64,000 nucleotides of DNA from Escherichia coli (GCF_017348835.2 NZ_CP071375.1); one strand, 5' to 3'. Shown: positions 53,151 to 53,511, counted from the stretch's first letter. Numbers and translations: made by a program. Notes: generated by a model not told the origin, from the sequence alone.

Positions 53151-53247
53151 GTATCTATTCATCAATAGCAACTGATTTATAGATTTACTATTATTTTTCA
53201 TATGGATAGAAAATAAAATACATTCAAGTATCTATTCACGAATCTAT

Positions 53248-53511
53248 TCATTTATGTTCAGCCGTCATCCAGGAAGGGCATATCAGCAACTCTGGTGGAC
53301 AACCATAAATTTCTGCCATTTTGCTTTTGATGTTTGAACTAAGTCGTTCCGTCTTTTCGATCTGTTTTAGAGAATTAATCGAGATACCTAACATTTTACT
53401 TACTTCAGCAAGCGATAATTTATGCCTGATACGCACGGCGGCTAGCCAGGAAATACGCTGGCTGAACATTAAATTGATAATCTCCCGTTCCTGGTTTTCC
53501 AGATCGATCAT
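53248..53511 (-). CDS. small XRE/Cro-type helix-turn-helix protein, 87 aa, directly downstream of lplA
   Basis: ATG at 53511 with AGGAAGG ribosome-binding site 31 nt after the lplA stop; HTH signature LSLAEVSKMLGISINSLKQIEKTER. Confidence 0.6.
   Translation of the reverse strand: MIDLENQEREIINLMFSQRISWLAAVRIRHKLSLAEVSKMLGISINSLKQIEKTERLSSNIKSKMAEIYGCPPELLICPSWMTAEHK

Follow-up and report, generated by a model that had tools for sequence, protein, structure and literature searches.

The AT-rich tract that lies between deoD and a small helix-turn-helix (HTH) gene in this Escherichia coli chromosome is very probably the 5' regulatory region of hipH, orphaned by replacement of the hipH open reading frame, and the nonamer ATCTATTCA repeated within it would be the operator unit recognised by HipH's own winged helix in an autorepressive circuit. 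HipH, formerly named YjjJ, is one of three characterised HipA-type persistence kinases and has no antitoxin gene; its HTH has been said only to 'potentially' bind DNA (PMC8262856). The gene encodes a HipA-family Ser/Thr kinase toxin equipped with its own N-terminal winged-helix DNA-binding domain. In the following, the window denotes the whole 64-kb stretch that was analysed, with the gene order deoCABD, lplA, ytjB, serB, radA.

Exact copies of ATCTATTCA were located at 53153-53161, 53230-53238 and 53242-53250 on the + strand, and no further copy was found on either strand of the window (0.43 expected from shuffles). The initial annotation had reported three copies and placed the first two correctly, while the third starts at 53242 and not at 53241. 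The tract has an A+T content of 78% compared to 47.5% in the whole window; at the tract's own composition, the Poisson probability of three or more copies in 104 nt is about 2e-9. A degenerate fourth unit at 53218, ATACATTCA, had been overlooked. The proximal copies are thus part of a phased series of three units, each 12 bp long (ATACATTCAAGT at 53218, ATCTATTCACGA at 53230, ATCTATTCATTT at 53242), which is directly followed by an ATG at 53254, and the start of the distal copy lies exactly 65 nt upstream of the start of unit 1. The spaced pair ATTCA-N7-ATTCA is present twice in the tract and once elsewhere in the window, compared to 0.19 expected. The location of the tract between the deoD terminator and the 3' end of the HTH ORF is as originally described (Table 1).

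Table 1. Features of the deoD-lplA interval, in positions of the window.
Feature	Position	Strand	Remarks
deoD intrinsic terminator hairpin	53119..53146	+	12-pair stem with 8 G-C pairs, then TTTTT
Candidate distal operator unit, ATCTATTCA	53153..53161	+	9/9 identical to K-12
56-bp spacer	53162..53217	+	Presumed place of the core promoter in hipH-bearing relatives; diverged, 24/56 positions as in K-12, equal length
TAAAAT, candidate relic -10 hexamer	53214..53219	+	Putative; 2-nt overlap with unit 1
Proximal array, three 12-bp units: ATACATTCAagt (degenerate), ATCTATTCAcga, ATCTATTCAttt	53218..53253	+	
87-aa XRE-type HTH ORF	53248..53511	-	Pfam HTH_3, E = 8e-7
Relic hipH start codon	53254..53256	+	Last triplet common to the K-12 haplotype
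Replacement segment, 286 bp	53257..53542	.	Haplotype-specific; occupies the place of the 1332-bp hipH ORF
lplA stop codon	53543..53545	-	Right border of the swap

No intrinsic terminator was detected within the tract, the sole terminator-like site being the deoD hairpin upstream, which forms the left border outside the array and is identical in the K-12 haplotype. Rfam covariance models gave no match in 52800-53800 at E values up to 1, and a simple scan of the + strand did not reveal a sigma-70 consensus promoter in the tract of either the window or K-12. HipB-type palindromes (TATCC-N8-GGATA, up to 2 mismatches) are absent from 53151-53256, and their number across the window is at chance level. 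The suggestion that the iterated motif resembles an operator array rather than a terminator was borne out. Such an array is informative by its clustering and phase; how often the 9-mer occurs as background across the genome is not a suitable test. Of the related half-sites noted before, ttatagat (53177-53184) is indeed an imperfect inverted copy of the distal unit, but it is probably incidental because the tract in K-12 lacks it. The 12-nt direct repeat AGTATCTATTCA, which flanks 65 bp, was considered as target-site duplication of a small insert and rejected because the distal-plus-proximal layout occurs in all hipH lineages.

The tract is homologous to the region upstream of hipH in K-12. Window positions 53060-53256 align with the K-12 deoD-yjjJ (hipH) intergenic region; units, spacer length and flanks correspond, and the array ends at the yjjJ ATG, in agreement with the initial suggestion that the tract could be left over from the yjjJ region. 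The end of deoD and its terminator nearly match K-12, with a few substitutions before the hairpin. The spacer aligns without gaps at 43% identity, whereas array and ATG match at 36 of 39 positions; in K-12 all three proximal units are perfect copies of ATCTATTCA and the ATG is the start codon of yjjJ. Past this ATG the two haplotypes are unrelated as far as the lplA stop codon: K-12 carries the 1332-bp yjjJ ORF, the stop codon of which abuts that of lplA, and the window carries the replacement segment. Among 5426 complete E. coli genomes, this 286-bp HTH segment was found in 4073 and yjjJ in 1348 (sum 5421), so that the two are mutually exclusive and nearly exhaustive states of the locus. The whole window arrangement is present in 4068 genomes, about 1300 match only to 53256 and then carry yjjJ, and the array region is found in 5262.

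No remnant of hipH was detected on the hipH-less side. Local alignment against shuffles revealed no residual similarity of the replacement segment to yjjJ on either strand, and tblastn with 60-odd HipH proteins found no homology; the best match (E = 0.01) lies on the opposite strand and was attributed to generic HTH-to-HTH similarity. The 64-kb window holds no HipH relative, a weak match of the HipH N-domain at 27807-27953 being spurious and inside a dehydrogenase gene, and at megablast sensitivity no yjjJ-like DNA was found anywhere in genomes of the hipH-less haplotype. Two observations concern the hipH-bearing state. In E. coli PK8241 (L003:3650-4365), IS200C is inserted exactly between the T-run of the deoD terminator and the distal unit, leaving hipH and its control region intact. 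Furthermore, the spacer diverges far faster than the genes at a constant length of 56 bp (window 53162-53217 versus L001:3163-3218 and L013); judged by eye, it also looks strongly diverged in a comparison of K-12 with E. albertii, two taxa that share 95% identity in the HipH protein.

The array accompanies hipH far beyond E. coli. A scan of 100,044 species, one genome each, for the exact tandem ATCTATTCAnnnATCTATTCA yielded at least 120 loci, compared to about 9 expected at equal base frequencies by our calculation. Among the matches listed, 67 are followed within 0-90 nt, mostly within 30 nt, by a HipH-type ORF on the same strand, either complete or cut by the contig end. These ORFs are 30-95% identical to YjjJ and combine an N-terminal '..SQ[PA]T.SR..' with a HipA_C domain. 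Four further loci among the matches listed hold a hipH pseudogene or a stub cut off by the contig end, orphan arrays that include a distal unit account for at least four, and the remainder lie within coding sequence or are 12-mer microsatellites. The hipH-linked loci belong to Enterobacterales, Xanthomonadales, Steroidobacter, Burkholderiales and one Verrucomicrobia MAG, and the same motif and phase precede hipH genes that are only 35% identical as protein. Their recurrent layout consists of a single distal unit, which lies 65-66 nt upstream of the first unit in 36 loci and 76-77 nt upstream in 7 loci, and of two or three units at a 12-bp period that reach the start codon. The window, with 53153 / 53218, 53230, 53242 / ATG 53254, has this architecture of the hipH 5' region. 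The hipH genes mostly lack a Shine-Dalgarno sequence, and the last unit reaches to within 1-6 nt of the start codon (e.g. L001:3219-3257); distances from the last ATTCA to the start have two peaks, at 5 nt and at 15-17 nt, which keeps them in step with the 12-bp period.

A second sample was collected by protein similarity alone from viral and metagenome contigs and comprised 86 hipH loci after dereplication. N-termini were aligned to K-12 and the loci classed by the residues at K-12 positions 25-26. ATTCA at a 12-bp period within 90 nt of the start was found in 59 of the 66 loci with an S25-Q26 ('SQ') helix, the other 7 being exceptions, and in none of the 20 non-SQ loci (Fisher p = 5e-14). 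The pair was likewise absent from 430 same-size windows inside the hipH genes and from 1720 shuffled upstream regions. At least two units within one mismatch of ATCTATTCA were present in 49 of the 66 SQ loci. The consensus of 189 units is ATCTATTCA (A79 T76 C71 T68 A99 T99 T97 C99 A97, in %) followed by three free positions, where positions 5-9 were partly imposed by the method and positions 1-4, conserved at 68-79%, were not.

Kinases without the SQ helix have other repeats in the same place, nearly all with a period of about 12 bp. Helices of the types SRPTLAR, TRPTLAR and SRATL.R go with the unit ATCGTT(T/A)C(A), TR[PT]TL[SA]R and NRMTLSR with ATTCGTnnC, DRSTVTR with TTATTGATGCA, and NKSTLTR with ATTyCGATGCA. 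The contrast is clearest between Gln26 (ATC-TA-TTCA) and Arg26 (ATC-GT-TTCA). Because this cis element travels with the gene and changes with the recognition helix, the repeat is best explained as the site of the HipH recognition helix, an interpretation that is consistent with the predicted structure of the protein.

AlphaFold modelled HipH residues 1-105 from a 38-sequence alignment with a pLDDT of 92.5 and the elements H3-8, H15-22, H26-35, E39-42 and E49-53. In this model, residues 1-55 form an ArsR/SmtB-like winged helix with a recognition helix that begins at 'SQ' (helix 3, residues 26-35), and the residues that vary between classes sit at its N-terminal end. The best PDB matches are the ArsR/SmtB winged helices HlyU, SqrR, CzrA and DNA-bound NolR (rmsd 1.5-2.4 A over about 50 residues). 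With a domain of this short length, the weak Foldseek E-values (0.15-0.5) are to be expected; a search of YjjJ against PDB sequences gave no match. Pfam HTH_5 and MarR exceed the cut-off in some HipH members, e.g. HTH_5 in L029 with 27.3 bits against a cut-off of 22. Published data fit this picture: both the toxicity of HipH and its localisation to the nucleoid require the HTH, and c-di-GMP, which the protein binds with a KD of 7.6 uM, increases transcription of hipH solely in the context of the native promoter (PMC11452175).

The position of a promoter-like hexamer suggests how the elements may work together. In 27 of the 66 SQ loci a TAnnnT hexamer ends exactly at the first unit and in 16 it overlaps this unit by 2 nt (43 together), many of these hexamers being plain TATAAT or TAGAAT. 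From this position, the array would span roughly -7 to +30 and the distal unit would lie near -65, with -35 and -10 in the spacer. In the window as in dozens of genera, the control region would comprise three elements: a distal unit, a 56-bp spacer with the core promoter, and a head-to-tail array of two or three units from the -10 to the start codon. Occupation of both array and distal unit by HipH would enclose the hipH promoter and either exclude or trap RNA polymerase. Since c-di-GMP induction depends on the native promoter (PMC11452175), we further propose that c-di-GMP-bound HipH would leave the array and hipH would be induced. Binding of the units by HipH, repression by this binding, the place of the transcription start and inertness of the array in the window are all deduced from sequence comparison.

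In the present haplotype, which accounts for three quarters of E. coli, the array is most likely an orphan, i.e. a fossil operator and promoter without cognate protein or gene, because the window encodes no HipH and genomes of this haplotype contain no yjjJ-like DNA. Unit 1 is polymorphic, reading ATCTATTCA in E24377A, ATCCATTCA in Nissle and ATACATTCA in the window; TC_EC10 has lost one 12-bp unit and AVS0973 carries a C>T change in the distal unit. Within five diverse hipH-less genomes only, nucleotide diversity was 0.056 in the array, 0.042 in the HTH ORF and 0.014 in the spacer, so the array shows no clear excess decay and may retain a residual function.

A still active array is the first alternative to be weighed. 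An open relic promoter (+ strand, around 53226) could produce antisense RNA over the HTH gene into lplA or express a 27-codon ORF, or the units could serve another factor; we regard this as rather unlikely, though with an appreciable chance. It would fit the -10-like TAAAAT in the family-typical position, the intact ATG and 27-codon ORF, the persistence of the array region in nearly all genomes of the comparison set (5262/5426), and units 2 and 3, which are unchanged in five hipH-less genomes save for one unit-sized deletion. However, neither a recognisable -35 nor a consensus promoter is present, and the three states of unit 1 (ATCT, ATCC, ATAC), the deletion of a unit and the distal C>T change are as expected for drift. 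The 27-codon ORF opened by the relic hipH ATG, MFSRHPGRAYQQLWWTTINFCHFAFDV (53254-53337, + strand), overlaps the 3' part of the HTH gene in antisense orientation.

It was also considered that the repeats act in the hipH mRNA leader, through translation control or RNA binding, and not as DNA operators. Transcription would include the entire proximal array if the -10 directly adjoins unit 1; moreover, the array reaches the start codon and most loci are without a Shine-Dalgarno sequence. We nevertheless judge this reading improbable: a constant 65-nt distance places the distal unit upstream of the inferred promoter, there is neither an Rfam match nor evident structure, and the co-varying element is an ArsR/SmtB-type recognition helix, a predicted reader of double-stranded DNA.

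A host factor other than HipH, such as a nucleoid protein or a c-di-GMP-responsive regulator, is very improbable as the protein that binds the units. Such a factor would be compatible with the AT-rich context and with the response of the hipH promoter to c-di-GMP (PMC11452175). Moreover, ChIP-exo with myc-tagged YjjJ in K-12 MG1655 detected no binding sites at all, in a study whose authors treated YjjJ as a protein without HTH (PMC8464067). This result, like the lack of a consensus promoter in the E. coli tract, speaks against the HipH operator that we propose. The weak native promoter may have yielded too little protein in that experiment, and the lack of a consensus promoter may itself account for low expression. 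Against a host factor, the element travels with hipH through unrelated neighbourhoods and phyla, and the repeat sequence and the HipH recognition helix change only together. The nucleoid-protein array that had been suggested at first is unlikely in particular because the same 18 specified bases are kept beside hipH in G+C-rich genomes.

The adjacent HTH gene had been implicated as well, and the array could then represent operators of the 87-aa XRE-type protein, bound downstream of its own gene. We consider this highly improbable. The protein does have a bona fide HTH_3 domain and its gene is adjacent, with the stop codon inside array unit 3, but the array lies at the 3' end of this gene and not at its promoter, and no motif copy occurs between lplA and the start of the HTH ORF. 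XRE dimers usually read palindromes, and the array units are direct repeats. The protein is confined to Escherichia/Shigella and often a pseudogene, whereas the motif is kept beside hipH in Enterobacterales, Xanthomonadales, Burkholderiales and others without the 87-aa protein and co-varies with the HipH recognition helix instead. The last three codons of the ORF, stop included, are read from array/ATG sequence shared with the hipH haplotype, which implies that its C-terminus was created by the junction. Many truncated forms exist, in dozens of truncated protein clusters, and the gene is a pseudogene in E24377A (internal stop) and TC_EC10 (frameshift), which suggests weak selection. Regulators of Pasteurella and Klebsiella phages share 30-38% identity with the protein, which gave no BLASTP alignment with HipB. 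The HTH gene is therefore a neighbour of the array and not its partner, adjacency being the only link, and it should not be annotated as the regulator of the array.

Two further observations were made on this gene. A near-palindrome, TATTTCCTTCCTTGGATA (53511-53528), covers its start and ribosome-binding region and resembles a HipB-type half-site pair with 2 mismatches, such matches being at chance level in the window. Two apparent '72% identical' HTH homologues (L011, L012; Logan assemblies SRR13921544 and SRR18740011) were discarded as G-to-A converted assemblies of the same E. coli deoD-HTH-lplA locus. Nearly every G is read as A in them, they look like bisulfite-type converted reads assembled as native, and as such they enter protein databases as homologues.

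Chance repeats or replication slippage in AT-rich DNA without any function, to which the gain or loss of a 12-bp unit between strains might point, can be practically dismissed, given the local clustering (P ~2e-9) and the recurrence of the same sequence and phase upstream of hipH genes with 35% protein identity, by which this explanation is already refuted.

With HipH as the preferred reader of the units, the proposed arrangement can be compared with known systems, since a toxin gene that is autoregulated via promoter-overlapping sites is of a known kind. In hipBA, whose autoregulation has been described (PMC8262856), a HipA-family toxin gene likewise has several short sites across its promoter, the HipB-bound TATCC-N8-GGATA palindromes, and in both systems the sites are read, in the case of hipH putatively, by an HTH that the module itself encodes. 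The reader in hipBA, HipB, is an XRE-type dimer made as a separate protein and binds inverted repeats, whereas hipH has direct repeats at a 12-bp period and a predicted reader fused to the kinase. The HipH N-domain matches the fold of the ArsR/SmtB repressors HlyU, SqrR, CzrA and NolR at 20-33% identity and has the 'SQPT.SR' helix start in common with them. ArsR/SmtB repressors act as free-standing dimers on imperfect palindromes and respond to metals or sulfur species. Unlike in these repressors, the domain precedes a beta-rich linker and the kinase in HipH, and the sites are arranged head-to-tail. Short head-to-tail units at a promoter, with one winged-helix domain per unit, are known from OmpR/PhoB regulators and from the iterons of plasmid Rep proteins. 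The period is 12 bp in the hipH array compared to 10-11 bp for OmpR/PhoB and 17-22 bp for iterons, and HipH contains neither a receiver nor a Rep domain. A further counterpart is the K-12 deoD-yjjJ region, which has the same position, flanks and distal unit and differs in its diverged spacer and in the intact hipH ORF.

As far as we have seen, the combination of a kinase-fused, predicted ArsR-like winged helix with 12-bp direct repeats, a fixed distal site, co-varying repeat classes and orphan copies appears to be new; the literature searched contained no relevant description of a HipH operator or of the motif string, and an earlier description elsewhere is possible. A defined candidate operator with a fixed architecture and natural helix-matched variants would make the control of HipH directly testable, and it offers a possible mechanism for the c-di-GMP induction of hipH via its native promoter (compare PMC11452175). 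For annotation, it follows that three quarters of E. coli genomes have a hipH control region without hipH.

Loss of hipH next to a retained array is not confined to this haplotype. Two Pantoea loci (L072, L108) are without a hipH ORF, and their homology to the hipH-bearing locus L070 breaks off where the array ends and is found again from the stop codon onward. Serratia plymuthica (L060) has lost an internal part of hipH in frame, so that a stub of 11 codons is left. In Enterobacteriaceae bacterium RIT691 (L051), a 217-aa membrane-protein ORF begins at the ATG directly after an intact distal-plus-proximal array, i.e. an unrelated gene now stands under the control region of the toxin, at the start position of hipH. 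E. coli WB61 (L232:1498-1689) represents a third state of the locus, in which hipH is an N-terminal stub that includes the winged helix and runs into lplA; annotated as partial 'transcriptional regulator', this stub would be a natural HTH-only HipH. The idea that the deletions are anchored at the array end was weakened by the Serratia plymuthica deletion, which is internal to the ORF, and by WB61, which keeps the N-terminal stub. In E. coli, Pantoea and Serratia, the toxin ORF has repeatedly disappeared and its candidate operator has stayed in place, which provides a compact example of toxin-gene turnover.

A more far-reaching joint reading, which we regard as a long shot, would combine self-regulating HipH toxins with a re-programmable recognition code, orphan arrays as excision scars and an antisense function of the relic promoter. 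The code would pair helix residue 26 with repeat bases 4-5, e.g. Gln with TA and Arg with GT; if this is true, a Q26R (or S25T/Q26R) HipH would trade ATCTATTCA for ATCGTTTCA. The scars would arise from the reported DNase activity of HipH, which, while tethered at the operator, would cause recurrent excision of hipH. The relic promoter, no longer repressed in E. coli without hipH, would then drive antisense transcription into the HTH gene and lplA.

Two MAGs contain related repeats in other surroundings. In the Verrucomicrobiaceae MAG RPOS01, five contigs (L015-L019) carry the exact tandem 19 nt upstream of an identical AAA-ATPase-like ORF (MKVTLQQAATLVQTCGHTNTFLLRGAPGIGKSS...), a repeated element with a hipH-type tandem and no hipH. 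In the Methanosarcinaceae MAG JAQVBP01 (L041-L043), (ATCTATTCAatt)n with up to five units directly follows a 5S-rRNA-like sequence.
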